Virus record (IMG/VR): IMGVR_UViG_3300024333_000003
Direction: 5' to 3' (one strand)
Source: a virus
Taxonomy: Duplodnaviria; Heunggongvirae; Uroviricota; Caudoviricetes
Length of the DNA: 64,000 bases
Part shown: in pieces, positions 40 to 63,999 of the stretch
How the letters are laid out: each line of letters begins with the position of its first letter
How positions within the stretch are numbered: the stretch's first letter is position 1
Made by a program: the position numbers and the translations under genes
The notes under the pieces: model-generated
The model's database searches: none
What the model was told of the DNA's origin: nothing
What the model saw: only the letters and a program-made list of their open reading frames with translations

Positions 40-558
40 ATGTATTCAAAAAATACACGGGTACAACAATGGAAACATTATTATGAAGTTGTACAGACCA
101 GATCCTTGGAAACTAGAAAGAGCAGGGAATTTTATTTTACGGCTATAACTAATATGCTCGCTAATAGTAAGATTCCTAGGGAACGTGCAGAAATCTACGC
201 AGAAATACCTGATGTAGAAAGTCTGTGGAAACCCTCTGCCATTTCGCATCGTGGCGCCATGGGATTATGGCAAATAATGCCTAACACTGCAAAACGATAT
301 GGGTATAAACCAAATGATATGTATGAGCCAGCAAAAGCTACACAATGCGCTATAAAATATCTGATTTTTTTGGATTCCCTATATAGTGGAGATGTTGCGG
401 CGGTACTATTCGCTTATAATGGAGGCGAAACCGGTGTTGCAACACATGCCAAAATATTTCAAACTAAGAATTTTTGGCATATAGAATTTACAAACCGAGA
501 AACATATAATTTTGCTCCAAAGGTCATAGGAGCGTGGTTGTACAATAACAAATATTAA
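40..558 (+). CDS. SLT-domain lytic transglycosylase; the reading frame is open to nt 1, so the gene may be 5'-truncated by the window edge
   Basis: VESLWKPSAISHRGAMGLWQIMPNTA matches the E-S...GLMQ catalytic motif of the SLT family. No stop codon between nt 1 and the ATG at 40. Confidence 0.6.
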   Translation: MYSKNTRVQQWKHYYEVVQTRSLETRKSREFYFTAITNMLANSKIPRERAEIYAEIPDVESLWKPSAISHRGAMGLWQIMPNTAKRYGYKPNDMYEPAKATQCAIKYLIFLDSLYSGDVAAVLFAYNGGETGVATHAKIFQTKNFWHIEFTNRETYNFAPKVIGAWLYNNKY

Positions 559-560
559 AT

Positions 561-1361
561 ATGAACGCATTAAATACCTATTTTAAAGATGTTTCAAAAT
601 ATGGGGTATTAGACGCAGATAAACAAACAGAGATGGTGCTGAGTGCACAACAGGGAGATAAAAAAGCGCAGCATCATCTCGTTGCGTCCAATCTGAAATT
701 CGTCATTTCAGTGGCTCGTCAATATGTAGGACAAGGAATACCGTTAGAAGATCTAATTGCCGAAGGAAATTTAGGTATTTTAAAAGCTATTGATCGCTTC
801 GATCCAGATCAAGGTACTAAATTCCTGACTTATGCCGCATGGTGGATCAGACAATCTATATTATTTGCTTTAGCTGAACACAATAGACAAATTCGGTTGC
901 CAGCCAATCGAATTGGTATATTACAACAATACAATAAAGCGATAATGCAGATGGAACAGGAGTTGAATAGAGAGGTGTCTTCGGGTGAAGTATTGGCAGA
1001 GTTGGGATTGGAAGCCGAAGATCTTGTGCGTCAATCAAGTGTAAGTTACCATACCATCATAGATGAGGGTACTATGCTTATTGATTTGCTACCTAATCCA
1101 GACGGCGAATCTCCTGATGCGGCTTTATTAAAAGATGCATTGAAACAAGAAATACGTCATGTGTTGGCATTGATTCCTACACGAGAACGTACTATATTAA
1201 AAATGTATTATGGTTTCGATGCACAACGAACTTATACACTGGAAGAAATAGGTGAAAAACTAGGTCTTACCAGAGAACGTATAAGACAATTAAGAAACAA
1301 AGCTATAAAAGATCTACGTAGATTAAACCGTAGACGAAAACTCGAGAATCTGAAAGATTAA
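561..1361 (+). CDS. RNA polymerase sigma-70 family factor, primary-sigma-like, with regions 1.2/2/3/4 but no region 1.1
   Basis: DLIAEGNLGILKAIDRFDPDQGTKFLTYAAWWIRQSI is near-identical to RpoD regions 2.1-2.4. TLEEIGEKLGLTRERIRQLRNKAIKDLR matches the region 4.2 HTH. Confidence 0.85.
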   Translation: MNALNTYFKDVSKYGVLDADKQTEMVLSAQQGDKKAQHHLVASNLKFVISVARQYVGQGIPLEDLIAEGNLGILKAIDRFDPDQGTKFLTYAAWWIRQSILFALAEHNRQIRLPANRIGILQQYNKAIMQMEQELNREVSSGEVLAELGLEAEDLVRQSSVSYHTIIDEGTMLIDLLPNPDGESPDAALLKDALKQEIRHVLALIPTRERTILKMYYGFDAQRTYTLEEIGEKLGLTRERIRQLRNKAIKDLRRLNRRRKLENLKD

Positions 1362-2378: not shown

Positions 2379-2633
2379 TGAAAATTAAACAAAAAGGTGC
2401 TAATTCGAGGAAACGCTCAAAGAGCCAATCTCGAGCTAAACTTAAGAAGATTGTTTTATCTTTGTGGAAATCTAAACACCGACTTAAGAAACGTGTAACG
2501 ACTAGTCGAAAGACGTAGCGATAAGTATCGCGAAATACACCTCACATTTGTGATGAAATAGTCTGATCTATATAGTAATATATAGCTGGAAAATATTCCG
2601 GAGGTAATTTAACGCATTACCTCGAACAAAATG
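2361..2633 (+). other. Putative self-splicing group I intron (~273 nt, no ORF) interrupting polA between ...KNP and NLQNIP...
   Basis: The 5' exon ends in U (cct) and the intervening sequence ends in G. An internal guide GGGGUU (2370-2375) can pair with the exon end AACCCU (P1). An R-like element AACGACUAGUC (2497-2507) and S-like AAAUAGUCUGA (2556-2566) give a P7 pairing GACUA/UAGUC. Joining the two parts restores the conserved TGR.SS..PNLQNIP motif. Confidence 0.6.
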
Positions 2634-3431
2634 AACTTACAAAATATACCTGTAAAAGATACATCGCTATACCGTGAAGCATTTGTTGCTCACACGGACG
2701 AAGATTTGTTAGTAGATGCTGACTACTCAAATATGGAATTGCGAATTCTCGCAGACCTTTCAAAAGAACCTAAATGGATGGAAATTTTTGAAAAGAATTT
2801 AGATATGCACTGCGAAATTGGTTCCGTAGTTATGGGAAAACCTATACGACTAAAAGGTACTAATGGGCCCGACGACCCAGGTGAAAATCTTGAATTACGC
2901 AAAATTGTAAAATCGCTTAATTTCGGAATTTCATATGGAATGGGGGCACAAAAACTCGCGAGAGAAGCAAAAATACCTTTTGCGGAGGCCCGACAAATAA
3001 TTAATAGTTATTGGGCTAGTTTCCCAAACGTCAAAAACTTCTTTGACGCATATGTTGCGAAGTGCATAACTAATAGATGTGTGCGTTCGCCATATGATAA
3101 TAGATTGCGCTGGCTAGAAGGATTCGATTTCGATTCCAATAAAGAGCGCGCTCGCGTGCGTAATATGACAATGAATTTTCCGATGCAGTCGGGAAATGCT
3201 AGTATAACAAAAATTGCTCTTACACACATACGCGAAGAAATAAAAAAAAGTAAATCAACTGCAAAGATTATTTGCACAATTCATGATGAGATTATACTAA
3301 ACGTGAAAAAATCTCAGGCTGAAGAAGCCGAAGCTATGCTTCGAAAATGCATGTTAGAAGCAGGTGAGCTTTACGTAAAAAACGTAAAAATAAAAGTTGA
3401 ATCATGCATAGCCCCCTATTGGAAGAAATAA
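2631..3431 (+). CDS. polA: Family-A DNA polymerase, 3' part (polymerase palm/fingers). The spliced exon probably starts at 2634.
   Basis: NLQNIP at the N-terminus. O-helix/motif B RKIVKSLNFGISYGMG. Motif C HDEIIL. Confidence 0.8.
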   Translation: MNLQNIPVKDTSLYREAFVAHTDEDLLVDADYSNMELRILADLSKEPKWMEIFEKNLDMHCEIGSVVMGKPIRLKGTNGPDDPGENLELRKIVKSLNFGISYGMGAQKLAREAKIPFAEARQIINSYWASFPNVKNFFDAYVAKCITNRCVRSPYDNRLRWLEGFDFDSNKERARVRNMTMNFPMQSGNASITKIALTHIREEIKKSKSTAKIICTIHDEIILNVKKSQAEEAEAMLRKCMLEAGELYVKNVKIKVESCIAPYWKK

Positions 3432-4808: not shown

Positions 4809-6452
4809 TTAGAATATCAAATCGATCTTAATATAATTTACTGGATATGGTGGTAATATTGTTATACTTACCAACACAGTATCCCTGCTTACAGTATCCT
4901 GTGCAACAGATGCTACAACAAAATCATTCAAAATTCCATCACGTATTAACAAGCTACCGGCGCCCTTTATCGCGATTGTAATCATATCTAATGTAGCACG
5001 ATTAATTACATATCTACCAATAAATGGCTCTACGGCACTACGTACAAATTTCGCTGTATAATCTACAGTTTTTGTAATACTTACTTCACGTTTTTCTATC
5101 GAACTCATGTCGGTCGATAACTGATGACGACATACGATAGGAGACGTGAGTTTTGATTGCTTCAAAATATAAGTTCCGCCTTGTGCGATTGTATTTAATT
5201 GTGCTTCAGTGAAATAATCGGAACTATATTTTAGTGAATTAATGTTTGCTAACGAAAGGTTCGTCATTGGTTGTTGTGGTGTATTTCCCGCAATCATGCC
5301 TGCTACTGCTGGCACACCTATTACTGAAATAGGTACTGGTACATAAGCATAAAAGAACACATCACCAGTTTCCATAGCATGCGCTCTTAATGCCAACCAT
5401 AGTGCTTCAGTTATTTCTACACCAAGTCCAGCAACTGGACGAACTGTGTAATTTCGGTAAGCTGTTTGTGAATTGGTGGCACTAAATGTTACTAATTGAT
5501 CGATGTATGCATTTACAGTTACACTATAACCGCTCGTATATAAATCACTAATATACTGGGGTCTCAATGTTGAGATATGTCTTAGTTCTCTTATAAATGC
5601 TACATCAGGGAAAACGTAAATAACGCGTTTTGCGCCTACGCCGGCCGACATTGCAGAATAAGCGGTCGCAGTAGCTGCTTTTGATGCACCCCAAGGAATC
5701 TTAGGCCCACCAAACACTATTCGCTCTTTCTTAGCTGTCGATAACGACATAGCGTTTACATGTGTTTTATAATTTGCAATAATTGCTGTATCATAAGTTA
5801 ATGGCGCTAACGCGTACACTTCTTTTGCTTCTAAATCTGTCATAGCCAACGTGTGACTTGCTGAGGCAGTTGCAATACCTGACACATTACAAGTAATAGA
5901 TGCAAAATCGTCAACAACAGTTCCGTATGCATATGTAGCTGCGTTACCGTTATTCAAAGTCTCGACCAACGCAAATCCCAACGGATTCAGCGCCGATACA
6001 TCTGTCATTTCATCTACAACGGCTTGTAAAGATTCATATAATTCTACCGACATCAGATCTGAACGTAATGCGCGATAACCGATAAACACAGAGGCGCCAT
6101 TCCAATCAGCATTAGCCGGAACGGTCACTGTGCCGGCATTCGCATCTATCGTCAGTCCACTTGCTATAATAAGACGAGATCCCACTGGATTGGTCACTGT
6201 ACCAGTAGCTTTCATAACTAGATCAACATAGACTGACGTCGAATCTAAAGCCATTCCTGCTTCAAAACCATGCAATGTATAAGTTGTCTGTGAGCCATCA
6301 AATACAGCATAATCACTGTCTTTGGTTGAATCTAATGCTTCTACATGGTACGCTGGGCCAATAACAGCCGGTACTAAATCTGGCTGAATTAGTGTTGGAG
6401 AAACTGTCTTTTGAATTTGATTTACCTCTACTTGAGGCGGATTATATGCCAT
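4809..6452 (-). CDS. putative contractile tail sheath-like protein
   Basis: 547 aa with Thr/Ser/Ala/Val-rich composition typical of sheath proteins, followed by a ~220-aa tube-sized gene. No motif-level proof. Confidence 0.35.
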   Translation of the reverse strand: MAYNPPQVEVNQIQKTVSPTLIQPDLVPAVIGPAYHVEALDSTKDSDYAVFDGSQTTYTLHGFEAGMALDSTSVYVDLVMKATGTVTNPVGSRLIIASGLTIDANAGTVTVPANADWNGASVFIGYRALRSDLMSVELYESLQAVVDEMTDVSALNPLGFALVETLNNGNAATYAYGTVVDDFASITCNVSGIATASASHTLAMTDLEAKEVYALAPLTYDTAIIANYKTHVNAMSLSTAKKERIVFGGPKIPWGASKAATATAYSAMSAGVGAKRVIYVFPDVAFIRELRHISTLRPQYISDLYTSGYSVTVNAYIDQLVTFSATNSQTAYRNYTVRPVAGLGVEITEALWLALRAHAMETGDVFFYAYVPVPISVIGVPAVAGMIAGNTPQQPMTNLSLANINSLKYSSDYFTEAQLNTIAQGGTYILKQSKLTSPIVCRHQLSTDMSSIEKREVSITKTVDYTAKFVRSAVEPFIGRYVINRATLDMITIAIKGAGSLLIRDGILNDFVVASVAQDTVSRDTVLVSITILPPYPVNYIKIDLIF

Positions 6453-23095: not shown

Positions 23096-23104
23096 GGTAT
23101 AAGA
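23096..23104 (+). promoter_or_regulatory. GGTATAAGA promoter element (-10-like TATAAG)
   Basis: One of 13 same-strand intergenic copies of this 9-mer. Confidence 0.5.
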
Positions 23105-25137: not shown

Positions 25138-26052
25138 TTATGCATTTGACCAAGTTAATTTTGCAACTGCCTTGTTGTTGATAATAGCCATACCAATGGT
25201 CTCATATGCGGACCACTTAATCAGGTTACGTTTCTTCTCTATCCAGAATTTAACATCGTTTAGGACATAGAATTTACCCATAAATTCCTGAGGTGCGAAC
25301 GCATACATTGTGCCTTCTGGAACCAAATCGCCCTTAATTGTCGTTACGAACTTTTTGCCCAAAATTGTTGCGTATTTAAAACCGTTAATATACACTTCAC
25401 TTGCAGCCGGCGAACCTACTGTCGTTGCAGGTAGTGTAGCTAGTTTATTGTAATCTGCTTGGTTCATTAACACTACATCAACTACCAATGGATTTGTTCC
25501 AGTTGTGGAATCTTCCATCTTGTTGAATAGTTTTGTGAACATGTTCAACTCCATAATTCCTGAAGTTGTGGTTGTGTACGTTACCGTCTTACTCGAAGCT
25601 GCAACTGCTGCTGCTACTGCAGTCATGAATGCTGTATCTTCAATCTTCATGATCTCTTTTACTGCATTACGTTCAACTAGTTCAGTTATTGGCATTTCAT
25701 ATGCTAATAGCTCTTCTTCAACCTTTTGGAATTCTTTCGAACTAATACCAAAGAAAGAAACCTCTGCACGGTCGCCTTCAACGTATTGAACGTCTGGTTG
25801 TCCGCGTAGAGTAATCATCATTGCACCTGCATCCGGTTCGATGTCAACGATTTTAACTAATTGCTCGTGTAATGTAGTACGCTGTAAATCAGCCTTAGTT
25901 ACATATTGTGGGTTAATAATTTTGCGAGAAAATGCGTTCTCACGCAATTTGGTACGAATATACTGACCAACCTCTTGTGCCACCTTCTCTAATTCAGTAT
26001 CAAGGCGGTTAACGAAAATTTCGTTCAATGCTTTAGTGTTTACACTTTCCAT
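25138..26052 (-). CDS. putative major capsid protein (HK97-fold size class)
   Basis: 304 aa. Immediately followed by a strong terminator, the typical position and expression context for an MCP. No motif proof. Confidence 0.4.
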   Translation of the reverse strand: MESVNTKALNEIFVNRLDTELEKVAQEVGQYIRTKLRENAFSRKIINPQYVTKADLQRTTLHEQLVKIVDIEPDAGAMMITLRGQPDVQYVEGDRAEVSFFGISSKEFQKVEEELLAYEMPITELVERNAVKEIMKIEDTAFMTAVAAAVAASSKTVTYTTTTSGIMELNMFTKLFNKMEDSTTGTNPLVVDVVLMNQADYNKLATLPATTVGSPAASEVYINGFKYATILGKKFVTTIKGDLVPEGTMYAFAPQEFMGKFYVLNDVKFWIEKKRNLIKWSAYETIGMAIINNKAVAKLTWSNA

Positions 26053-31992: not shown

Positions 31993-34653
31993 TTAATTAT
32001 TAAATGCAGAGGCACGGTAATATAATTCTGCAGCCAGGTCTCCATACAAAATGCTATGGAAGGTGTCGTCGGCGGCAGACTTAATATATCTGTACGTGTT
32101 CTTTTCTTCGTTATATTCAATCGCAATAGCCAGTATATCTTTCGCATAATATTGAAAGTCACTCCATTGCGGGAAAACGATCTTCCGCTGTTTTATCTTA
32201 GTAAATAAATCAGTCATCACGGTGTTGCGAGATAAGGTATATGCCTGAATATGCCCATTGAACTGACCACGTTGTTTTTGATTCGGCACATGTTGAAATG
32301 CTATTAATCTGGTTTTATCATTTATACGATTTCGTACTTCAGCATTCACTGCCTCACCAAAACCGGCATCAGCTCCTATTAATGCACAGCCCCATCTGTA
32401 ATATTCTGCCGGTATATGCTCATGTAGATAAGCATAATCAGCTTCTTTACCTTCATACTTATGTAGGTAGATTATTTCTGTAACATCACCGCGACGTTGC
32501 GAAATTGTCATCAACGTTTTTGACATTTCGCTGTTAATTGGCCCCCAGTCCATTCCCATAAACGTGGGATAATCTCTGGTGCGACGATCTGGTTCCTGAA
32601 TCATTGGCCCACCAGTGCAACATGCTTTAATTTCCTCTTCGGTTACTGGAGCGACACCGGCATCATATGGTAGCCCTAGATACTCGTTAAAAAATACGCC
32701 TTTGGATTTTGTTTGAAATGGTATATAAACATCCGTCTGCCAATTTACCCAAGGCGCGTGGGCAAACATTAAAACACTAACTCTAAACCCCTCAAACAAG
32801 TACGATCCATCATGAATAGATTTGTCTGATTCGGGATTTGTACGCACCCATTGTCCGTTGCGCGCGTCTAGAGACATTTTGCAATATCTACAAGCAAGCC
32901 CCCATGGTTGAATGTTTTCTTCGTCAAGAAAGTTTTGTTTCTCACAATGCTGGCATTTTGCAATCCATTCATTTCTAGTAGTCTGACGCCATCGATTTGC
33001 TAATGGCCCGATAATATGTTTTGGAGTTCCTGCATATATCGAATGTTTGTAAAATGATCGCGCCATTGTTTGTTCAATGACATCGATGTTATCATCGGGA
33101 ATATCTTGGATTTCGTCCAGACACTGATGACACACTATAGGTAACTTTTCTATCGCATCTCTTACAAAAATCAAGTGATTCTTTACGCCGACACAATAAA
33201 CTGGTCCAATGTAATCTATATATTCGATGCGCGAATTATTTGTATATCCGTTCCAAAATATTATGCTGTCTTTTTTATAGCGTCCGACGTTATATAAAAT
33301 TGTTCCGTTATATGCTGGTTTTCGACTTCTAATACTACAAAGATACCCCAAGCGAAGCCATGCCTCCTGTACTGTATTTGCTAACTCGATTGATGCTGTA
33401 ACTAACTGTCCCCCGTTATGACCGAAGTCTTGTACATGCATGGCATCTCCTTTATATAAGGCATTTAAAAGGTCCGGTAGATATTGTATGTAATTTAATA
33501 ATTCCCTAGGTATATATTTATCATGCGAGGTGCCCAAAGCATATAAGTATCTAGATAAAGCAGCGTTTGCAAAGTAAAATGTATTACATACAGCATTTTT
33601 ATTATGTCTGGCAACAACGCCCCATTTAACTCCCATTGCTGTTAAGCAATGTCGAATTTCGTCTGAGTATGCACCTTCGTTTTGTATTATACGTATTTGT
33701 CCCGCAGGAGATATATACCCCTCAGCTAAAAACCACCCCATAAATTGCATGAAAATTTTCAATGGCGCTGAAAAACTGGGTATCTTTTTGGGATATTTAT
33801 ACGGAGATCCGTCTAACTTATTTGCAACAATTTGTTCAGGTAATTTAAAATCGACGGGATTGGCTGACTCCCAATTTCCCCTAACACCTAATTTAAAATT
33901 TTTTCCTGCTAACTGTTGTGCTTTTATATTAAACCAGCCTTTAACTTTTGGATTCTGATAGTAACCAGTACTTAATTCCTGTGATACGTTCATTATATGA
34001 TCAGGGGTCACGCAAAGATTAAAACTGCGCTGCGTAAATTTAACTAGTTTACCTTGATATGCTTTTTGGATATACATATCGGGTAAATGATATTCTACCA
34101 TTCCCGTTTTGTCATTTACTGTAGCAACTCTTTCATCGTCGAGAAGATTTTTAAATAATTTCCAACCATTCTCGGTGAGAATTTCTGTATTTGCATCAAA
34201 ACAATTCATGTCAGCAGATATACCACGAATACGATCGGCAGTTGCAGATCCATAACGTAAATAAATAACACTACCATTAAGGAAACGTTTTTGGAATACG
34301 TTTTGAATTGTGGAACTACTTACAAAATATTTTTTAAATATCGGGCTTTGTTCTATAACAGTATCAACACGATCATATGAAAATACGCGTACCTGTTCAA
34401 CAGTGGGCGATACTGCCAAAATTTTAAATCCACCCTTATGCCTGTTGCTAACATATGGCATTAAAATACATTTAGCTAACATGAAATTTGACAGCGTGGT
34501 AGATTTAGCGACTTGGCGACTCGTATGTAAACACAACTTCATTGGATCAATATCATAAATCAATTTCATGTGTGGATAGTCATCCAAACTGAATGGTTCA
34601 TTATTAAGATAAAAAAACTTTTGTACGAAGTCTGATAATTTAAATTGTAACAT
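31993..34653 (-). CDS. terL: terminase large subunit interrupted by an intein (extein ~526 aa)
   Basis: N-terminal deviant Walker A TSRQVAKST. A Walker-B-like LDE is reconstituted across the intein. C-terminal nuclease-sized domain. Confidence 0.7.
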   Translation of the reverse strand: MLQFKLSDFVQKFFYLNNEPFSLDDYPHMKLIYDIDPMKLCLHTSRQVAKSTTLSNFMLAKCILMPYVSNRHKGGFKILAVSPTVEQVRVFSYDRVDTVIEQSPIFKKYFVSSSTIQNVFQKRFLNGSVIYLRYGSATADRIRGISADMNCFDANTEILTENGWKLFKNLLDDERVATVNDKTGMVEYHLPDMYIQKAYQGKLVKFTQRSFNLCVTPDHIMNVSQELSTGYYQNPKVKGWFNIKAQQLAGKNFKLGVRGNWESANPVDFKLPEQIVANKLDGSPYKYPKKIPSFSAPLKIFMQFMGWFLAEGYISPAGQIRIIQNEGAYSDEIRHCLTAMGVKWGVVARHNKNAVCNTFYFANAALSRYLYALGTSHDKYIPRELLNYIQYLPDLLNALYKGDAMHVQDFGHNGGQLVTASIELANTVQEAWLRLGYLCSIRSRKPAYNGTILYNVGRYKKDSIIFWNGYTNNSRIEYIDYIGPVYCVGVKNHLIFVRDAIEKLPIVCHQCLDEIQDIPDDNIDVIEQTMARSFYKHSIYAGTPKHIIGPLANRWRQTTRNEWIAKCQHCEKQNFLDEENIQPWGLACRYCKMSLDARNGQWVRTNPESDKSIHDGSYLFEGFRVSVLMFAHAPWVNWQTDVYIPFQTKSKGVFFNEYLGLPYDAGVAPVTEEEIKACCTGGPMIQEPDRRTRDYPTFMGMDWGPINSEMSKTLMTISQRRGDVTEIIYLHKYEGKEADYAYLHEHIPAEYYRWGCALIGADAGFGEAVNAEVRNRINDKTRLIAFQHVPNQKQRGQFNGHIQAYTLSRNTVMTDLFTKIKQRKIVFPQWSDFQYYAKDILAIAIEYNEEKNTYRYIKSAADDTFHSILYGDLAAELYYRASAFNN
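33124..34203 (-). mobile_element. intein (360 aa) with a LAGLIDADG homing-endonuclease domain inside terL
   Basis: Block A CFDANTEILTENG. Block B CVTPDHIMNVS. LAGLIDADG-like FMGWFLAEGYIS and LLNALYKGDAMH. Block F VYCVGVKNHLIFV. Block G LPIVCHQ followed by +1 Cys (C-terminal Gln instead of Asn). Confidence 0.6.
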
Positions 34654-50342: not shown

Positions 50343-50750
50343 TTATCCTTTCACTACTCTAAACCCTTCTACGCCGGGAATAGCTGAATCTACTGGTTTC
50401 TGTTGTTTCTTTAAATTAAGTAAGCGTTTATCGTGTGCCTGTGCATTTTGCGCATGCTGAATTCGATTCATACGCAATTCTTTTTCAGACAAAGCTATAT
50501 TAGCCATGGAAGGCACGGTTTCACGTACTTTATTAACTAAGGGTGTTATTGCTTTATTAAATTTAGCACCAAATGCCACGCCTGCTCCAGTACCAAATGC
50601 GGTGCCCACAATAGTACCACGTGCATTACCATCATCGATAACATTGCCTCCAACGGCCCCCACTGCACCGCCAGCAATTCCCGTAGTTGTGCGAGGAAAT
50701 TGTCTTACTTTGTTAATTGCTTTTGCAAATAAGTTAGCTATTTCGTTCAT
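50343..50750 (-). CDS. Gly-zipper protein
   Basis: GIAGGAVGAVGG...GTAFGTGAGVAFGA. Confidence 0.35.
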   Translation of the reverse strand: MNEIANLFAKAINKVRQFPRTTTGIAGGAVGAVGGNVIDDGNARGTIVGTAFGTGAGVAFGAKFNKAITPLVNKVRETVPSMANIALSEKELRMNRIQHAQNAQAHDKRLLNLKKQQKPVDSAIPGVEGFRVVKG

Positions 50751-55078: not shown

Positions 55079-55087
55079 GGTATAAGA
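55079..55087 (+). promoter_or_regulatory. GGTATAAGA promoter element, abutting the divergent -35 box
   Basis: aGGTATAAGAat upstream of gene 55131. Confidence 0.45.
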
Positions 55088-55130: not shown

Positions 55131-56246
55131 ATGATTCTTATCGGAATCGTTATTATTGCAATTGCTGAAGCAGTTTGTTTTGTGTTTTTTAAAGACAAAA
55201 TGTCTTGGCAGAAATATGTAATACTACTGAATATTGGGTTTATAATTTTATTCGGTAGTCAATTAATAGCTACATATGGAACAGCTTTAGAAACTGAATA
55301 TATCGGCGAATATGCGTTAGCATGTGATTACTATGAACCATGGAATGAATGGCATCATGATATGTGTTCACGCGACATTCCTTCGGGGACTGATTCAGAC
55401 GGTAATATTACATATACCACATATTACTATGATTGTTCACATGTGGATAGTCATGGACCTAGTTATAAAATAACTACAAATCTCGGTAAAAATTATGACG
55501 TAGATTTGGGTATGTATAACTACTTAACCAAGATATGGAAAAATAAACAATACATAGACCTAGGCCGAAATTATTATACACAGGATGGTGATAAATATAC
55601 TACACATTGGAATAACGATGATCATACTATTATTCCATATATTAGTACACAACTATACACTAATAAAACACGACATGCGCCAAGTGTATTTAAATTCTAT
55701 CAGCCTGATACAGCACATATAAAATTGTTTAATTATCCGAAAGTGATAAATAACACCTGTCCTTCGATATTGCAAGAAGGGAATATAATGGATTATACTC
55801 AAGCAGATCAGCTGCTGACAAATTACAATGGCTTAATCGGATCAGTAAAACAAGTACGTATGTGGTTATTAATATTCCACGACCGGCCAGATGGATACGC
55901 TGTTCATCAAGAAAGCTATTGGAAAGGTGGTAATAAGAACGAAGTAGTTGTATGTGTAAGTATTAACGATACGGCCAAAATACAGTGGGCTAAAGTCTTC
56001 TCATGGACTAAACGGAATGATATGAAAGAAGATATACAAGCTATGATATTAGCTCAAAGTAAATTCGATCCATTGACTACGGTGACTAATCTTAAAGATA
56101 TAGTGGCCCAAAAATTTGAGCGGCGGCAATTTAAGGAATTTGACTATTTGACTGTAGAAATAGAACCAATCATACAAATACTTATTCTTTCATTATTGTT
56201 AATGGTACTAATAATAACTATTATATTTTTCACAATAAGGAATTAA
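55131..56246 (+). CDS. membrane protein (N- and C-terminal TM helices)
   Basis: RBS aaaggat. Hydrophobic ends. Confidence 0.35.
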   Translation: MILIGIVIIAIAEAVCFVFFKDKMSWQKYVILLNIGFIILFGSQLIATYGTALETEYIGEYALACDYYEPWNEWHHDMCSRDIPSGTDSDGNITYTTYYYDCSHVDSHGPSYKITTNLGKNYDVDLGMYNYLTKIWKNKQYIDLGRNYYTQDGDKYTTHWNNDDHTIIPYISTQLYTNKTRHAPSVFKFYQPDTAHIKLFNYPKVINNTCPSILQEGNIMDYTQADQLLTNYNGLIGSVKQVRMWLLIFHDRPDGYAVHQESYWKGGNKNEVVVCVSINDTAKIQWAKVFSWTKRNDMKEDIQAMILAQSKFDPLTTVTNLKDIVAQKFERRQFKEFDYLTVEIEPIIQILILSLLLMVLIITIIFFTIRN

Positions 56247-56248
56247 TT

Positions 56249-56647
56249 ATGATTATCAAACTTTTCCATTCTGCGTTGCAGTCCGCGTCTACAATATCGG
56301 CGTATCGTGTTTTATGTCCATGCTGTGCTGAAGGTGTACTAGGTTGCATACGGAATGATAGTGCGAAATTAACTAATTATGATTTTTGTCAAGAATGCGG
56401 CCAACAGTACCAATACCTGGATACTGCGATAAACGAAGAAGTGTTAGTAAAACATACAAATATACCAATTGAAACGTGTGTTATATGTCATACCAAAAAT
56501 GCGCACACTGTCACAAATGTAGGCTACCTACCAAGTCTCAGTATTTACATAGACTTACAGCTATTACCTAAAAAATATATAAGCGACATCCCCCTAAGTC
56601 TTTGTGAAAAATGTGCACGTAGTTACGACCGCGAATTTCACTCATAA
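56249..56647 (+). CDS. Cys-rich zinc-finger protein
   Basis: CPCC...CQEC...CVIC...CEKC. Confidence 0.35.
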   Translation: MIIKLFHSALQSASTISAYRVLCPCCAEGVLGCIRNDSAKLTNYDFCQECGQQYQYLDTAINEEVLVKHTNIPIETCVICHTKNAHTVTNVGYLPSLSIYIDLQLLPKKYISDIPLSLCEKCARSYDREFHS

Positions 56648-56657
56648 TCGCCACCTA

Positions 56658-56692
56658 AATATTTGCCTGGACTGACCCTCCAGGCAAATATT
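56658..56692. repeat. perfect 13-bp inverted repeat (aatatttgcctgg-N9-ccaggcaaatatt), terminator-like without an adjacent U-tract
   Basis: Seen directly in the sequence. Confidence 0.5.
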
Positions 56693-57339
56693 GAAAAGTA
56701 CATTTTTTACTTTTCAAAAAAACTTTTTACCCAAAAAATCCGAAAAAATTTTCCTTCGCAAAAAATTCTCATTTTGATACACTTTTTTGGTCAAAAACCC
56801 CAATGATTTTGCAACAAAAAATGACCGGTGCAGCAGCGGACCCGCATAAACAGGGGCCAGAAAAATTTTTTTCAAAATCAACTTCGACCGGTCCCATGAA
56901 AAATCGCATTTCCGATCAATGAAATCAGCTTAAAGTAAATTGTGAACTCAGAATTAGACCTATTTATATTTATTTTTAGTAAAAGTAATAATATTCTAAA
57001 GTTGAAATAAAATTGATTTTCAAATATTAAAAAACGACCCCTAAAAATGAGGATCGATATTACGCTAAAACCCTCATTTTTATTTAAGATTTTACTTTAG
57101 CGTGGTGTGCTAAGTGCTTAATTTATAAGAACTTAATCCCTCAAAAACGCGAAAAACGCGACCGGTCCCTAAACGGCGATTTTGTTCCAAAATCGCTAAT
57201 TTCAAAACGTAAGTTTAAAGGCCTTCAATCAACTGCTTAAAATACACCAAAACGGCCATTTAATTTTGTCACGCGACTTTGTCAAAAATATGATAAAATG
57301 ACGAAAAAATCTGCTTGTGGTCCCATAGCCATTCACCGT
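56693..57339. other. ORF-free A-tract-rich region, a candidate replication origin or regulatory hub
   Basis: Multiple A5-7 tracts. GACCGGTCC appears twice. AAAAACGCG is repeated directly. Divergent promoter-like elements. Confidence 0.35.
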
Positions 57340-57348
57340 GGTATAAGA
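57340..57348 (+). promoter_or_regulatory. GGTATAAGA promoter element
   Basis: gTGGTATAAGAACATAGAAaggag upstream of gene 57368. Confidence 0.5.
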
Positions 57349-57367
57349 ACATAGAAAGGAGTATATT

Positions 57368-57910
57368 ATGAAATACGCAATATTACTCATTAGCACGATT
57401 CTTTTATATAACGTGATAGATTCCAGCACATTACCAAAAATTACGTCTATACAGGAACTGTGCGAAATTAGACAGGTGTCCTATAGTATGATCAAACGAC
57501 AAATATTCCGTGAGTCGTCTTATCGACCACATGTTATCAGCCATAAAGGCGCGGTAGGATTAATGCAGGTGTTGCCATCAACTGCCAGCGATTTCTGTCA
57601 ATATTCAATAACTATCGAAATGTTGAAAGATAAATTATTCAACGTAACTATAGGAATACGCTACTTATTGCATTTGCGTGGATTTTATATTTATCTAGGA
57701 TATGATTCGAGCAAAGCAATGCAGTTAGCCATGTGTTCATACTATGAAGGACCCGGTGCTACTATATCTAGGCACTTCAAGGGTAAGCTTTGTAAGGCAA
57801 CAAAAAAAGCTTACTATAGATATTATGTATTTAATAAAACACCAAAACCATTAACCAATTTGCCTAAAGTTAAATTAAACTCTTACGCAAAATTTATTGT
57901 CGGAGTATAA
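57368..57910 (+). CDS. SLT-domain lytic transglycosylase with an N-terminal signal/SAR-like hydrophobic segment
   Basis: FRESSYRPHVISHKGAVGLMQVLPSTA. N-terminus MKYAILLISTILLYNV. Confidence 0.65.
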   Translation: MKYAILLISTILLYNVIDSSTLPKITSIQELCEIRQVSYSMIKRQIFRESSYRPHVISHKGAVGLMQVLPSTASDFCQYSITIEMLKDKLFNVTIGIRYLLHLRGFYIYLGYDSSKAMQLAMCSYYEGPGATISRHFKGKLCKATKKAYYRYYVFNKTPKPLTNLPKVKLNSYAKFIVGV

Positions 57911-58445
57911 TATGAATATAGCGATTCACTTTGCCGACTTCAATGCATATGGGTGTCCGCAATGCGGGTGTTCTTCCGCTACTGGTTATCTTTCTGGGAA
58001 TGGGACAACTTGCGTACAATGCCTTGAATGCAAGGAAGCTTTTTATATTGTTTCGGATCATCTATCAGTATCTACCATAGGTCATGGTGATCCTGCCGTA
58101 TTTCCAGAGGTATCACCACATCCACGTGCGCATGTTCCAGCACATAATTTGGTAGTGCCAGACAACCCACCTCCCGAGGGGGAATATTTTGCGCCCAGAG
58201 GTGTTGGTTATGATTTGGCTGGATTTGTAAGATGTAAGCAAGCCGGAGAACGAATAGTTCAAATGTTTACAGAGATACTACGGTGTAAACCAAAAACTTT
58301 TCTTGATTATCGTCCAAATGAACCACTGTGGATTCAGGTTAAGGTAAAAGCTGAAGATCATATAGATCTTGAAAAACTTAACGAACTTACGCAAAACGGA
58401 ATCATTACAAAACAAAAGATACAGCAATGTTTAATTCAGGTATAA
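57897..58445 (+). CDS. Cys-rich (zinc-ribbon) protein
   Basis: CPQCGC...CVQCLEC. Confidence 0.3.
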   Translation: MSEYNMNIAIHFADFNAYGCPQCGCSSATGYLSGNGTTCVQCLECKEAFYIVSDHLSVSTIGHGDPAVFPEVSPHPRAHVPAHNLVVPDNPPPEGEYFAPRGVGYDLAGFVRCKQAGERIVQMFTEILRCKPKTFLDYRPNEPLWIQVKVKAEDHIDLEKLNELTQNGIITKQKIQQCLIQV

Positions 58446-58447
58446 GA
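58439..58447 (+). promoter_or_regulatory. GGTATAAGA promoter element
   Basis: aGGTATAAGAt, followed by a ~460-nt ORF-free region. Confidence 0.45.
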
Positions 58448-58448
58448 T

Positions 58449-58903
58449 AATAAGTACCAAAGCTATCATTATATGGAAGGCGCATACCAACCATATTAAT
58501 GATTAAATCATGTTACTCTAATCTGCGGACGTGAGTGTGGTTCTAAATAGTAGTATGCTAACGCGAAGCATATACTAAAAGGGACCGTTGGAAGATAACA
58601 ACGTATTATCTCCAAACTGGTGATGACTATGCAAAAGTCGTTGCTTGGGTGATGATAAAAGCAGGTACTCTTTTCAGCCTATTCAATGTATGACTGAAGG
58701 GTATGCGCGAACAAAAAATTCATCCAACCTACATTGGGTCTATGCATCTACATAGGGTTGGGTCGAACTGGACTATTACTAGGATAGCCGAGGGGTACCG
58801 GCGAAAAGGTACAGTGTGTACATCGAAATACATACTTCTGAATACTAGATGATTCAGCCAAGAACAAAATCTGGAGGATCGTCCTAGCGGATCCTCCATT
58901 TTA
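58449..58903 (+). ncRNA. candidate non-coding RNA (a promoter-to-terminator unit with no ORF of 30 aa or more). Function unknown.
   Basis: Bounded by the promoter at 58439 and the terminator at 58873. Locally higher GC. Several hairpins, e.g. gtatgct-N7-agcatac. Confidence 0.3.
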
Positions 58904-58905
58904 AA
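58873..58905 (+). terminator. stem-loop terminator
   Basis: ggaggatc-N9-gatcctcc followed by ATTTT. Confidence 0.55.
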
Positions 58906-58915
58906 GGAGTAATTT

Positions 58916-59104
58916 ATGAGCTGGAGAAATGTTTTTTGTTCTGCCCATGTTCGTTGGGAAGGTATATTGTCTGTTCAAAGAGTAGCAAGAGCGAGTGGTT
59001 ATGAGTTCTATACCTGGAACGATAAAGTATATCGTACAGATGATAATAAATACAAACCACATGCTATAATTAATGGCGATGATTTTGAAATAGGTGTACC
59101 ATGA
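58916..59104 (+). CDS. hypothetical protein
   Basis: RBS aaaggag. Confidence 0.35.
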   Translation: MSWRNVFCSAHVRWEGILSVQRVARASGYEFYTWNDKVYRTDDNKYKPHAIINGDDFEIGVP

Positions 59105-59496
59105 TCACAATTCGAGAATCATTAACACCATCATTATGTATGGAAGGAATATGTCCAAACGATGCCGCCATATATCTATTCAATCGTAGAGCCCATACAT
59201 TGGCACGGTTGATATATGTATCTCCTGAAAAAATAGTTCTTCAAGGAACTGTAATGCCTAAGTATCTTCATTTACAAATAGCCGCGACCGGCGCTCCAAT
59301 GCCGATGTCGTTATTGTTACATATGTTTGCAGAGATCGAATTTAATAATAAAGTATTAATAGGATCTCTATCAGATTTCAAACACCATTTTTTCAGGGCT
59401 TGGGGCATGCCTGTGCCTGAACAACCACCTGAAAGCTTTTTTAAAGAACGATTAGATCAATGTATTTTACAACAGCTTACTCCTATCCCATTGTAG
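59101..59496 (+). CDS. hypothetical protein
   Basis: ORF. Confidence 0.3.
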   Translation: MITIRESLTPSLCMEGICPNDAAIYLFNRRAHTLARLIYVSPEKIVLQGTVMPKYLHLQIAATGAPMPMSLLLHMFAEIEFNNKVLIGSLSDFKHHFFRAWGMPVPEQPPESFFKERLDQCILQQLTPIPL

Positions 59497-59582
59497 CCCG
59501 ATGCCCAGAACCATTAGGTTACTTCTTTCCTGAACCGGCAGCACAACATACTGTCGGTTCAGTAGTTAATTTGGAGATCATT

Positions 59583-59741
59583 ATGAAAATAAATAATTTT
59601 GTTAAGATTGCAGTAATATGTTTAGTGACATCTCTTTTTTGTATATGTTGGTGCGCCATCCTTAATCCCGAAGGAATATTTTTCTTCTCGCTTACTGCTG
59701 GAGCCGCGTTTTTAATAATCTCGCAAGGAAATAAAACATGA
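59583..59741 (+). CDS. small 2-TM membrane protein, a holin candidate (start trimmed to MKINNF)
   Basis: RBS ggag. IAVICLVTSLFCICWCAIL...FFFSLTAGAAFLII. Confidence 0.3.
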   Translation: MKINNFVKIAVICLVTSLFCICWCAILNPEGIFFFSLTAGAAFLIISQGNKT

Positions 59742-59965
59742 GTACCAAAGATATAATTTATACGGGCATACTTATTCTTTTTGCCGTAATATTATTTGAA
59801 CAACAGCTACAGATAAATGATAATTACACTGAAGCACAAATGCGACAACTAGATTATGTAGCTGAGAAAGCAAAAATTAAGGATCGTATGAAACAAATGC
59901 AAAAGACAATCGACAGTTTAAAGATATCTTCTGATTCTATAAAAACTTATTATCTATATCATTAA
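59738..59965 (+). CDS. small membrane protein with 1 TM plus coiled coil, a holin/spanin candidate
   Basis: IIYTGILILFAVILF followed by a charged coiled coil. Confidence 0.3.
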   Translation: MSTKDIIYTGILILFAVILFEQQLQINDNYTEAQMRQLDYVAEKAKIKDRMKQMQKTIDSLKISSDSIKTYYLYH

Positions 59966-59974
59966 AGGAGCATT

Positions 59975-60136
59975 ATGCAAAATGTTAATATTTATGCTGT
60001 AATTGGTTTTATTGTAGCGTTGTTATTAGATTTTTTGGCGATACAATTAATACTATTCAAAAATAAGCGCTGGGGGCTAGTCCTACACATATTTTGTATG
60101 ATTCTAGCTTTCATCTCGGGATTTTATCTTCTATGA
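59975..60136 (+). CDS. small 2-TM membrane protein (53 aa, below the ORF-track threshold)
   Basis: RBS aaaggag 5 nt upstream. ATGA overlap with the next gene. Confidence 0.35.
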   Translation: MQNVNIYAVIGFIVALLLDFLAIQLILFKNKRWGLVLHIFCMILAFISGFYLL

Positions 60137-60624
60137 TACGCCTCGGAATAGTACCTATAGATGAGGTATTCACACAGATTTATGACGGCCGAGGGCGTCC
60201 AGATCGATTAATCTGTGGACAATGGATACACATGGAGTCAATACGTTATAAGGTATTTCGTCAAAGCCTAAGCTGTAAACACTGCGGACTACGTGGAGAA
60301 TATTTTGCTGTGGAAAAACATATTCACGGGTACGATGCCAGTGTTGAGAACACCAGATATCATCTTAATTTATACGCACGTGTTGGTGATGAAGAAATAT
60401 TATTTACTAAAGATCATATATTACCCAAGTCACTGGGCGGCAAAGATGACCTAGAAAATTTGCAGACATTATGTGTTAAATGCAACCATAAAAAAGGTAA
60501 CAATATAATAAAGGACCAGCATTTGATTCCTTGGCCAAGTAAACGAATTAAGATGAAAATGATTGCAGAAGCTGTTAAACAAAAGAAAGGAGTAGTCTAT
60601 GGCGGTATATGTAATGTGTTCTAA
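60133..60624 (+). CDS. HNH endonuclease (start trimmed to MIRLG)
   Basis: HILPKSLGGKDDLENLQTLCVKCNHKKGN. Confidence 0.65.
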   Translation: MIRLGIVPIDEVFTQIYDGRGRPDRLICGQWIHMESIRYKVFRQSLSCKHCGLRGEYFAVEKHIHGYDASVENTRYHLNLYARVGDEEILFTKDHILPKSLGGKDDLENLQTLCVKCNHKKGNNIIKDQHLIPWPSKRIKMKMIAEAVKQKKGVVYGGICNVF

Positions 60625-61821: not shown

Positions 61822-61830
61822 GGTATAAGA
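61822..61830 (+). promoter_or_regulatory. GGTATAAGA element
   Basis: aCGGTATAAGAat. Confidence 0.35.
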
Positions 61831-61878
61831 ATATAAGTACACGATACCCTCCCTTTCGTGTATCTAAGCCTTCCTAAT

Positions 61879-61916
61879 GCACGAGTTTCTGACTGGTTAC
61901 TCGTGCATTTTTTTTA
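61879..61916 (+). terminator. rho-independent terminator
   Basis: gcacgagt-N12-actcgtgc followed by a T9 run. Confidence 0.8.
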
Positions 61917-61918
61917 CG

Positions 61919-61927
61919 GGTATAAGA
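61919..61927 (+). promoter_or_regulatory. GGTATAAGA promoter element
   Basis: cGGGTATAAGAt upstream of gene 61953. Confidence 0.45.
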
Positions 61928-63214: not shown

Positions 63215-63223
63215 GGTATAAGA
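63215..63223 (+). promoter_or_regulatory. GGTATAAGA promoter element
   Basis: tTGGTATAAGAat. Confidence 0.45.
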
Positions 63224-63283
63224 ATCATGTTTCCAAGAACGGGAGCGGCATCGGAGATGCGGTGGTAGGAGGGTGGGGATTTT

Positions 63284-63292
63284 GGTATAAGA
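63284..63292 (+). promoter_or_regulatory. GGTATAAGA promoter element
   Basis: tTGGTATAAGAt. Confidence 0.45.
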
Positions 63293-63621
63293 TTATAGTC
63301 CAGTAATATAACTAGCTAGTTTGTAGAACCAGTAAAAAAATGTCAAAGATATTAACATAACTTGATTTGTTAACTTCGGGTTTTAATACATTTATGGAGT
63401 CGACGACTCTAGCTGCCTGGTGAAGATATATTATGTGTCATATAAGGACCTTGTGTAAACCCAATAACCCCTAAGACGGGAAGGAGAGACTCGGGTAGAT
63501 AATGTGATAGGACACCAAGGCTGCCGGGGCTTATCTCCGGCAGCTAATTATTCGAAACTGGTAAATAACTGATGAATGTAGTTCAGTATAACTCCAAATC
63601 ACAGGCCAGTATCCCTGGCCT
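63293..63621 (+). ncRNA. candidate structured leader or ncRNA (ORF-free, two strong hairpins)
   Basis: gctgccgg-N9-ccggcagc at about 63513-63537. 10-bp stem cacaggccag-N5-ctggcctgtg at about 63599-63623. Confidence 0.25.
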
Positions 63622-63999
63622 GTGCACCGAAAGGAAGGTATTATCATGTTTGAAAACACCATAGACACGATGTCAACGTTAGTCGGTGTTTGTTTAGAAA
63701 TAGAATTTCCAAATCACCTTGTTGATTTTCCCGACTTCCGTGTAATTCGCTCATTTCCATTTTGTACTGAACTAGGGGGATCCCAGCTAAAAATTTGTGG
63801 TCATGTCGCTGATCAATTGCTACTGGCACGCCGAGCTATATTAATGGCTCCTCCCAACAGTCTGTTACACAGTTTAGCGATAAAGATTGAACACGATATC
63901 GTTCGTACAGCGGCAATGTATATGGGCTGTGCTCCACAGTCCTTAGTTTTACGCAGACACCCTCAAGAGACTCAAACAATTGTAGTTGTCAGGTTATAA
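63622..63999 (+). CDS. hypothetical protein, 3'-truncated by the window edge
   Basis: RBS aaggaagg. ORF runs to the end of the window. Confidence 0.35.
   Translation: MHRKEGIIMFENTIDTMSTLVGVCLEIEFPNHLVDFPDFRVIRSFPFCTELGGSQLKICGHVADQLLLARRAILMAPPNSLLHSLAIKIEHDIVRTAAMYMGCAPQSLVLRRHPQETQTIVVVRL

Follow-up and report, generated by a model that had tools for sequence, protein, structure and literature searches.

A gene-free stretch between two plus-strand genes

The subject of this study is a gene-free stretch of 720 bp, positions 56648-57367, in a 64-kb piece of DNA (hereafter the window) from an uncultivated tailed phage. Metagenome contigs from several samples, the longest of 215,168 bp, encode identical proteins, which means that the phage genome is at least 215 kb in length and that the 64 kb analysed here are a part of it. 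The stretch lies between the stop codon of a plus-strand gene at 56249-56647, encoding a 132-aa protein with four CxxC pairs, and the ATG of a plus-strand gene at 57368-57910, encoding a 180-aa SLT-domain transglycosylase. All six frames of 56648-57367 are blocked by a mixture of TAA, TAG and TGA. Since the stops are mixed, recoding of one stop codon opens no gene, and a gene hidden under a recoded stop codon was ruled out on this ground. Small open reading frames (ORFs) with a ribosome-binding site (RBS) inside the region were examined and rejected, and gene callers applied to five independent assemblies placed nothing there except a 39-aa ORF (56803-56922), which was called in two of them. 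A first-pass annotation, made from the letters of the window, had described the region as free of ORFs and as the longest non-coding stretch of the window. The closed frames and the lack of a long gene call in the five assemblies agree with the former statement, and the latter is most likely true, since the other long gaps between large ORFs (39.1-39.9 kb and 46.8-47.6 kb) are occupied by plausible small ORFs. The same annotation had regarded a minus-strand ORF at 57229-57429 as spurious; this ORF overlaps a promoter and the start of the SLT gene, and no gene caller took it up. No tRNA or tmRNA was found in the region.

The region is physically the oddest DNA of the window. It is 66% A+T, with long homopolymer runs, and contains 20 runs of five or more A or T in its 720 bp, compared with a mean of 4.6 (standard deviation 2.7) in 720-bp windows across the 64 kb and 14.0 ± 2.5 in dinucleotide shuffles of the region itself. 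The density of such runs, 2.78 per 100 bp as compared with 0.2-2.2 in 11 other intergenic stretches, is the highest in the 64 kb. Eleven runs of at least five fall within 56703-56872, a segment whose plus strand is rich in C and poor in G and which carries the strongest predicted bend of the window, with a peak at about 56789. In a wedge model of curvature, the three top local peaks of the window (56789, 57296 and 57147) were all located inside the region, and the 120-bp segment 56715-56835 was the second most curved. In a cross-check with a parameter-free A-tract phase sum, the region took a rank between second and sixth in the window, according to the helical repeat assumed. Among the 100-bp duplexes of the window, an AT-rich core at 56931-57030 (16% GC) ranks second in instability, and 56961-57010 (10% GC) is the least stable 50-bp duplex in the 64 kb (z = 3.5). 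This core resembles a DNA-unwinding element. The earlier description of a series of A-tracts typical of bent or unwinding DNA was thus borne out computationally. Perfect inverted repeats are also denser here than anywhere else in the window, with four repeats having arms of at least 8 bp per 720 bp (mean 0.46, standard deviation 0.69); three have arms of at least 10 bp, as compared with 13 in the whole window. The chance tests, here and below, were picked after the sequence had been seen, and exact probabilities are therefore to be taken loosely.

The left edge is marked by tandem stem-loops. A perfect 14-bp inverted repeat (AATATTTGCCTGGA / TCCAGGCAAATATT; 56658-56671 and 56679-56692, plus strand, 7-nt loop) begins 11 nt past the stop codon of the upstream gene and is followed by no T-run. 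Its arms form the longest perfect inverted repeat in the window, equalled in 0 of 1000 dinucleotide shuffles of the region. The first-pass annotation had recorded this repeat at 56658-56692, correctly placed, with arms of 13 bp instead of 14 bp. A second perfect inverted repeat of 10 bp, which had been overlooked, abuts the first (TTGAAAAGTA / TACTTTTCAA; 56691-56700 and 56708-56717, plus strand, 7-nt loop) and is followed by an A7 tract. Folded jointly, the two hairpins have a minimum free energy of -26.1 kcal/mol (z = -8.6).

At the right edge, two promoter-like elements precede the SLT gene. A sigma-70-like promoter, TTGTCA-17-TATGAT, lies at 57266-57299 on the plus strand and agrees with the consensus at 10 of 12 positions; an extended -10 element, TGaTAAAAT (57291-57299), overlaps it. 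This promoter and the DNA just past it hold partly phased A-runs (57284-57310), and the second-ranked predicted bend (57296) is found there too. About 47 bp downstream is the word GGTATAAGA (57340-57348, plus strand), exactly where it had been noticed before; it matches at 9 of 9 positions, with a matrix score of 21.0. Six nucleotides separate the end of this word from the RBS of the SLT gene, AAAGGAG (57355-57361), which thus starts 7 nt downstream of it; the ATG, at 57368, is 20 nt downstream. As the SLT gene thus has its own nearby promoters, with a promoter word immediately before its RBS, the region is not simply a long 5' leader, an outcome that the first-pass annotation had considered. 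On the minus strand, the promoter-like TTGACA-17-TAAATG reported earlier is present at 57285-57257 and points to the AT core; its -35 is good, but its -10 is poor, lacking the conserved final T.

We found that GGTATAAGA occurs 13 times on the plus strand of the window and 0 times on the minus strand, as compared with 0.79 expected. The sites are at 23096, 38972, 40835, 43081, 46916, 47452, 55079, 57340, 58439, 61822, 61919, 63215 and 63284, all on the plus strand. A weight matrix gave these 13 sites scores of 18.0-23.4, and everything else in the window scored 15.8 or less. Most of them are located behind canonical terminators and 20-70 nt before a plus-strand ORF whose RBS is of the AGGAG type. 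The site at 55079 is the promoter of the two-gene unit that lies upstream of the region (55131-56647). A cluster of the word inside the gene-free region was ruled out, as only the right-edge site falls there. This invariant 9-mer is similar to an extended -10 element (TGgTATAAG) and has no conserved -35. From this pattern we infer that GGTATAAGA represents a phage promoter class, perhaps read by a sigma protein of the phage itself. A candidate reader of one phage promoter class is the 266-aa sigma-70-family protein encoded at 561-1361 (plus strand), which has regions 2, 3 and 4 (Pfam E-values 6e-20 to 5e-7). A related sequence, GTATAAGA, is found at 1279 within this sigma gene, probably by chance. 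The phage also uses host-type promoters, as indicated by TTGACA-17-TATATT ahead of several minus-strand genes. A general enrichment of sigma-70-like promoters was considered and rejected (84 in 44-64 kb as compared with 80.7 expected).

Boxes and hairpins of the central spacer

The central part, about 550 bp, carries repeated boxes. The 11-mer CGACCGGTCCC, with the palindromic core GACCGGTC, is found at 56885-56895 and, as an exact second copy, at 57159-57169; the 64 kb contain no further exact copy. A one-mismatch box, GACCGGTGC, lies at 56823-56831, in a GC-richer island (56823-56895) that also holds the first CGACCGGTCCC, and a degenerate box, CGACCCC, is present at 57035. The AT-rich, unwinding-type element at 56931-57030 has boxes on both sides. 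Among 1000 shuffles, 3 contained an exact direct repeat of 11 nt or more that included 6 or more G/C, and 4 contained a repeated 8-bp palindrome with at least 4 G/C. Two copies of GACCGGTCC had been reported in the first pass; both are exact, at 56886 and 57160, but the first had been placed at about 56906, 20 nt off. The direct repeat AAAAACGCG, seen earlier at about 57143, proved to be a tandem of two copies (57143-57160, plus strand) that leads straight into the second box; the third-ranked predicted bend (57147) falls on this tandem, and the region contains no tandem array beyond this 2.1-copy 9-mer. A perfect 9-bp inverted repeat with a 3-nt loop (GCGATTTTG / CAAAATCGC) is located at 57176-57196, and its word AAAATCGC is also found after the first box, at 56900. 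No word of the central 550 bp or so recurs elsewhere in the window above chance. A scan of IMG/VR for pairs of boxes at a spacing of 255-285 nt picked out 15 loci, all attributable to chance; most lay in GC-rich sequence and many in collagen-like Gly-X-Y repeats. Most simply, the CGACCGGTCCC boxes would be putative sites for a dimeric DNA-binding protein.

A perfect 11-bp inverted repeat (TAAAAATGAGG / CCTCATTTTTA) is present at 57042-57082, with a 19-nt loop that is atypical for a terminator. Its downstream flanks are T-rich on both strands (TTTAAGATTTT on the plus strand; GGGGTCG and then TTTTTT on the minus strand), and z is about -3 on both strands, which gives it the appearance of a two-way-terminator-like hairpin. 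A minus-strand terminator-like hairpin, CGATCCTCATTTTTAGGGGTCG followed by TTTTTT (57035-57056), has bases in common with the larger hairpin and passes a terminator scan. The loop of the larger hairpin (57053-57071) contains GATATTAC, which resembles the TATTAC core of the nick site of HUH rolling-circle Rep proteins (NANTATTAC); this match is likely due to chance.

Possible readings: control region, replication origin or relic

We tentatively favour, with somewhat less than even confidence, the interpretation that the region is a transcription-unit boundary with a control region, whose central spacer is structurally extreme and probably protein-bound. It would then be an intergenic control region between two same-strand transcription units, the downstream unit beginning with the SLT gene. 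The left stem-loops may terminate or stabilise the upstream mRNA, and read-through from upstream would probably be halted at the two-way terminator-like hairpin (57042-57082). The SLT unit would be served by the host-type sigma-70-like promoter at 57266-57299 and then by the phage word GGTATAAGA at 57340-57348. The middle 550 bp or so would act as a structural, protein-binding spacer that combines strongly bent A-tract DNA with an AT core that melts easily. The CGACCGGTCCC boxes flanking this flexible core are candidate sites for a dimeric protein that may control the promoters, possibly through a loop that spans the core. The regulatory hub proposed in the first-pass annotation accordingly finds its support at the edges, in the tandem stem-loops after the stop codon and in the sigma-70-like promoter and GGTATAAGA before the SLT gene. 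Several observations count against this interpretation. The terminator and promoter elements cover only about 130-170 of the 720 bp, and a 550-bp spacer is not normally needed for promoter control. The stems at 56658-56717 are excellent but lack the T-run of the clear terminators of this phage (46802, 48197, 61876 and 63176), which consist of an A-run, a stem and a T-run. No DNA-binding regulator was recognised, and the neighbouring 132-aa CxxC protein has no family match. No relatives close enough for comparing the region were found. Moreover, the physical features are the same as those that a replication origin would show.

Curved A-tract DNA is known upstream of promoters in other phages, including the early promoters of Bacillus phages SP82 and SPO1 and the early/late switch region of phi29. 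Like the terminator-promoter control regions of large lytic phages, the region has a stem-loop after the upstream stop codon, host-type and phage-specific promoters in tandem before the next gene, and partly phased A-runs over and just downstream of the first promoter and thus upstream of the second. Unlike them, it has about 550 bp of extra spacer, stem-loops without T-runs and palindromic boxes without a recognised binding protein, and its strongest bend lies 450-550 bp upstream of the promoters, which is too far to act as an UP element. Transcription-activated or transcript-primed origins, such as the T7 primary origin, T4 oriF and oriG, ColE1 RNA II and the ori of lactococcal phage c2, provide a second comparison. 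Promoters beside an AT-rich, easily melted segment, a family-A polymerase of the phage and a predicted transcript 3' end bordering the AT core are shared with these; in contrast to them, the sole promoter aimed at the AT core is weak and the strong promoters point away. As long non-coding regions with repeats, the origins of lactococcal phages c2, sk1 and phi31 are similar cases. With initiator-dependent origins (lambda ori, P1 oriR and the RepA_N-type origin of PLE; PMC7145576), the region has in common an AT-rich core beside repeated GC-containing boxes, intrinsic bending, inverted repeats around poly-A runs and a long non-coding location. It differs from these origins in that it has no regular array of at least three iterons and no adjoining initiator gene was found, and in that it does not lie between divergent operons.

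A replication origin in the central part is possible, although we consider it doubtful. The 16%-GC core at 56931-57030 would then be the unwinding element, with melting aided by the bent A-tract DNA and the hairpins; the GACCGGTC boxes on both sides would bind an initiator, and transcription from a neighbouring promoter would activate replication or prime the family-A polymerase, as at T7, T4 and ColE1-type origins. It is conceivable, with the same doubt, that the AT core, the GACCGGTC boxes, the bends and the hairpins constitute the origin, or one of several origins, of an undescribed jumbo-phage lineage. Such an origin would have an unfamiliar initiator, without an iteron array or DnaA, and would perhaps be primed by a transcript ending at the edge of the core. 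This is consistent with the least stable 50-bp duplex, the strongest predicted bend and the highest density of perfect inverted repeats of the 64 kb all being located here, and with GC-rich palindromic boxes that are repeated and restricted to the region. In addition, promoters lie within 250 bp, the end of the minus-strand terminator-like hairpin falls exactly on the border of the AT core, and the phage encodes a family-A polymerase. Long, repeat-bearing non-coding regions are proven origins elsewhere, as in the Vibrio satellite PLE, where a RepA_N-type origin resides in a 2.7-kb non-coding region (PMC7145576). The boxes, however, are too few for iterons, with two exact and one or two degenerate copies that are irregularly spaced (63 and 274 bp), and self-alignment of the region with gaps gave scores of 20-22, inside the range of 19-30 obtained with shuffles, so that there is no iteron array. 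DnaA boxes (TTATCCACA) are likewise absent, with no match at one mismatch or less in 55582-60214 and a window-wide count equal to chance. The first-pass annotation had proposed a search for initiator proteins and an analysis of GC skew, neither of which favoured an origin. No Pfam or PHROG initiator, helicase or primase domain was found in the genes at 47-68 kb, most of which had no family match of any kind; no recognisable gene of these types thus lies within 10 kb, and the polymerase genes are 53 kb off. The flanking genes are on one strand, and the skew within the window only follows transcription, tracking gene orientation; its nearest sign change, at 55.04-55.13 kb, is outside the region, and the local minimum there is due to the divergent gene pair 55044/55131. 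Furthermore, TAAATG is a poor -10 for the minus-strand promoter that faces the AT core from a distance of 220 bp. The overall physical profile, with its unwinding-type core, bend, hairpins, flanking boxes and promoters, fits an origin and a protein-bound regulatory spacer alike.

The mid-region hairpins might instead belong to one or more small non-coding RNAs, for example a minus-strand RNA of about 220 nt running from about 57254 to the terminator at 57056-57029, or a plus-strand RNA or long 3' untranslated region ending at the 57042-57082 hairpin; we regard this as unlikely. A minus-strand T6 terminator-like hairpin in mid-region, with no minus-strand gene on either side, would be accounted for, as would the plus-strand T-rich tail of the same 57042-57082 hairpin. 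The region as a whole folds somewhat more stably than shuffles on the plus strand (z = -2.7, from only 20 shuffles), and short promoter-terminator units seem to be present elsewhere in the phage, e.g., at 61823-61915. On the other hand, the Rfam 15 covariance models gave no match in the window at the gathering score, and when E-values up to 10 were allowed, the best scores in the region were 15-22 bits, as compared with gathering scores of 45-186. Shuffled sequences fold as well as the candidate transcripts do (z = -1.7, -0.3 and +0.6), and neither mid-region terminator is fed by GGTATAAGA or by a good sigma-70-like promoter. The composition, 66% A+T with homopolymer runs, also sets the region apart from the structured gene-free stretches in its neighbourhood (z = -4.8 and -3.3). 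Rather improbable, in our view, is that the central part has no function, being a decayed gene or a mobile-element insertion that drifted to low-complexity AT-rich DNA, with the repeats and hairpins as leftovers. It would agree with the lack of any coding signal and of a homologue of any kind: megablast and blastn searches against 50,697 phage records gave no match to the region beyond AT-rich chance matches. The SLT gene may have been acquired recently, its protein having as its only match among 5.8 billion protein clusters a shorter call of the same protein with 100% identity, and the contigs that share the 371-aa gene located upstream (55131-56246) have no comparable gap. Drift, however, would not be expected to produce perfect inverted repeats of 14, 11, 10 and 9 bp and an exact GC-rich 11-mer repeat, nor to bring five independent extremes together in one place (non-coding length, tract density, curvature, perfect inverted repeats and duplex instability), and phage genomes are otherwise tightly packed. 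Least probable, and very much so, is a physical landmark of the genome, i.e., a packaging start (pac or cos), a terminal-repeat junction or an injection stop signal of the T5 type. With its many palindromes and repeats in non-coding DNA and its promoters directed rightward at one edge, the region resembles the T7 concatemer junction and the injection stop signal region of T5. However, the large terminase gene (31993-34653) is 22 kb away, and contigs end elsewhere, at window positions 50363, 50421, 54927 and 55136. Five assemblies from different samples cross the region without break or variation (100% identity), although collapsed terminal repeats would also give assemblies that read through. 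The suggestion of a genome end in the first-pass annotation thus gained no positive evidence.

Neighbouring genes and significance of the region

The gene at 55131-56246 (plus strand) encodes a 371-aa protein assigned to PHROG 2087, of unknown function, and a scan of IMG/VR with this neighbour found nothing. Its relatives have 45% identity or less, and the contigs that carry them (L006-L009) share no other gene with the window. In L006 and L007, the two longer of the contigs inspected, the relatives (30-45% identity) share a contig with T4-type RNA ligase genes, the two genes being directly adjacent in L006, which hints at a possible role in RNA repair. The 132-aa CxxC protein is represented in databases by copies that are all at least 99% identical. 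Two strain variants, L002 and L004, differ from the window at 0.07-0.12% of positions and show 0 changes in the 720 bp; as about 0.8 changes would be expected there, this says nothing about constraint. Within the CxxC gene, L002 and L004 share five substitutions in 47 bp (56476-56522), whereas the remaining 10-14 kb or so differs at only 2-11 positions; this segment is a local variable patch or a recombination tract.

Three further stretches associated with GGTATAAGA were noted. The 464-nt stretch at 58452-58915 (plus strand; 40% GC, z = -4.8) lies downstream of a GGTATAAGA promoter and ends in a hairpin, GGAGGATC...GATCCTCC followed by TTTT, just before the RBS of a 62-aa gene at 58916. It looks like a structured leader of the attenuator type or an undescribed RNA, and has no Rfam match. 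At 63215-63625 (plus strand), two GGTATAAGA promoters 69 nt apart are followed by a structured gene-free stretch of about 330 nt (z = -3.3), with several long GC-rich hairpins, before an ORF at 63622. At 61822-61915 (plus strand), a GGTATAAGA promoter is separated by about 80 nt from a canonical terminator (AATGCACGAGT...ACTCGTGCATT with a T-run), and the promoter at 61919 follows immediately; this unit is a candidate small RNA.

Elsewhere in the window, the large terminase (31993-34653, minus strand), the major head protein (25138-26052) and the tail sheath protein (4809-6452) are encoded, as is a DNA ligase. The family-A DNA polymerase is split into two plus-strand ORFs (1362-2378 and 2631-3431) with a 252-bp gap between them. 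The large terminase, 886 aa in length, has an insert at about aa 140-500 that matches a Lak-phage sequence and a thymidylate-synthase PHROG, and that may be an intein or a mobile insert. A second SLT-domain transglycosylase of 172 aa (Pfam E-value 3e-23) is encoded at 40-558 (plus strand), 57 kb from the SLT gene that adjoins the region. The nearest cultured phages, Vibrio phage D69 and Salmonella phage Arash, are very distant, with 27-44% identity over parts of the protease and terminase. Strong AGGAG-type RBSs and a GC content of 37% suggest a Firmicutes-like host.

If the central part of the region is an origin, it would provide a first handle on the start of replication in an isolated, uncultivated phage lineage with a genome of at least 215 kb, and a fragment for initiator-binding tests would be gained. 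If it is a control region only, its value would lie mainly in annotation, as it fixes a transcription-unit boundary. The region also contributed to the recognition of the GGTATAAGA promoter family, with which transcription units can be mapped genome-wide. In either case, the result is not surprising but gives a useful landmark.

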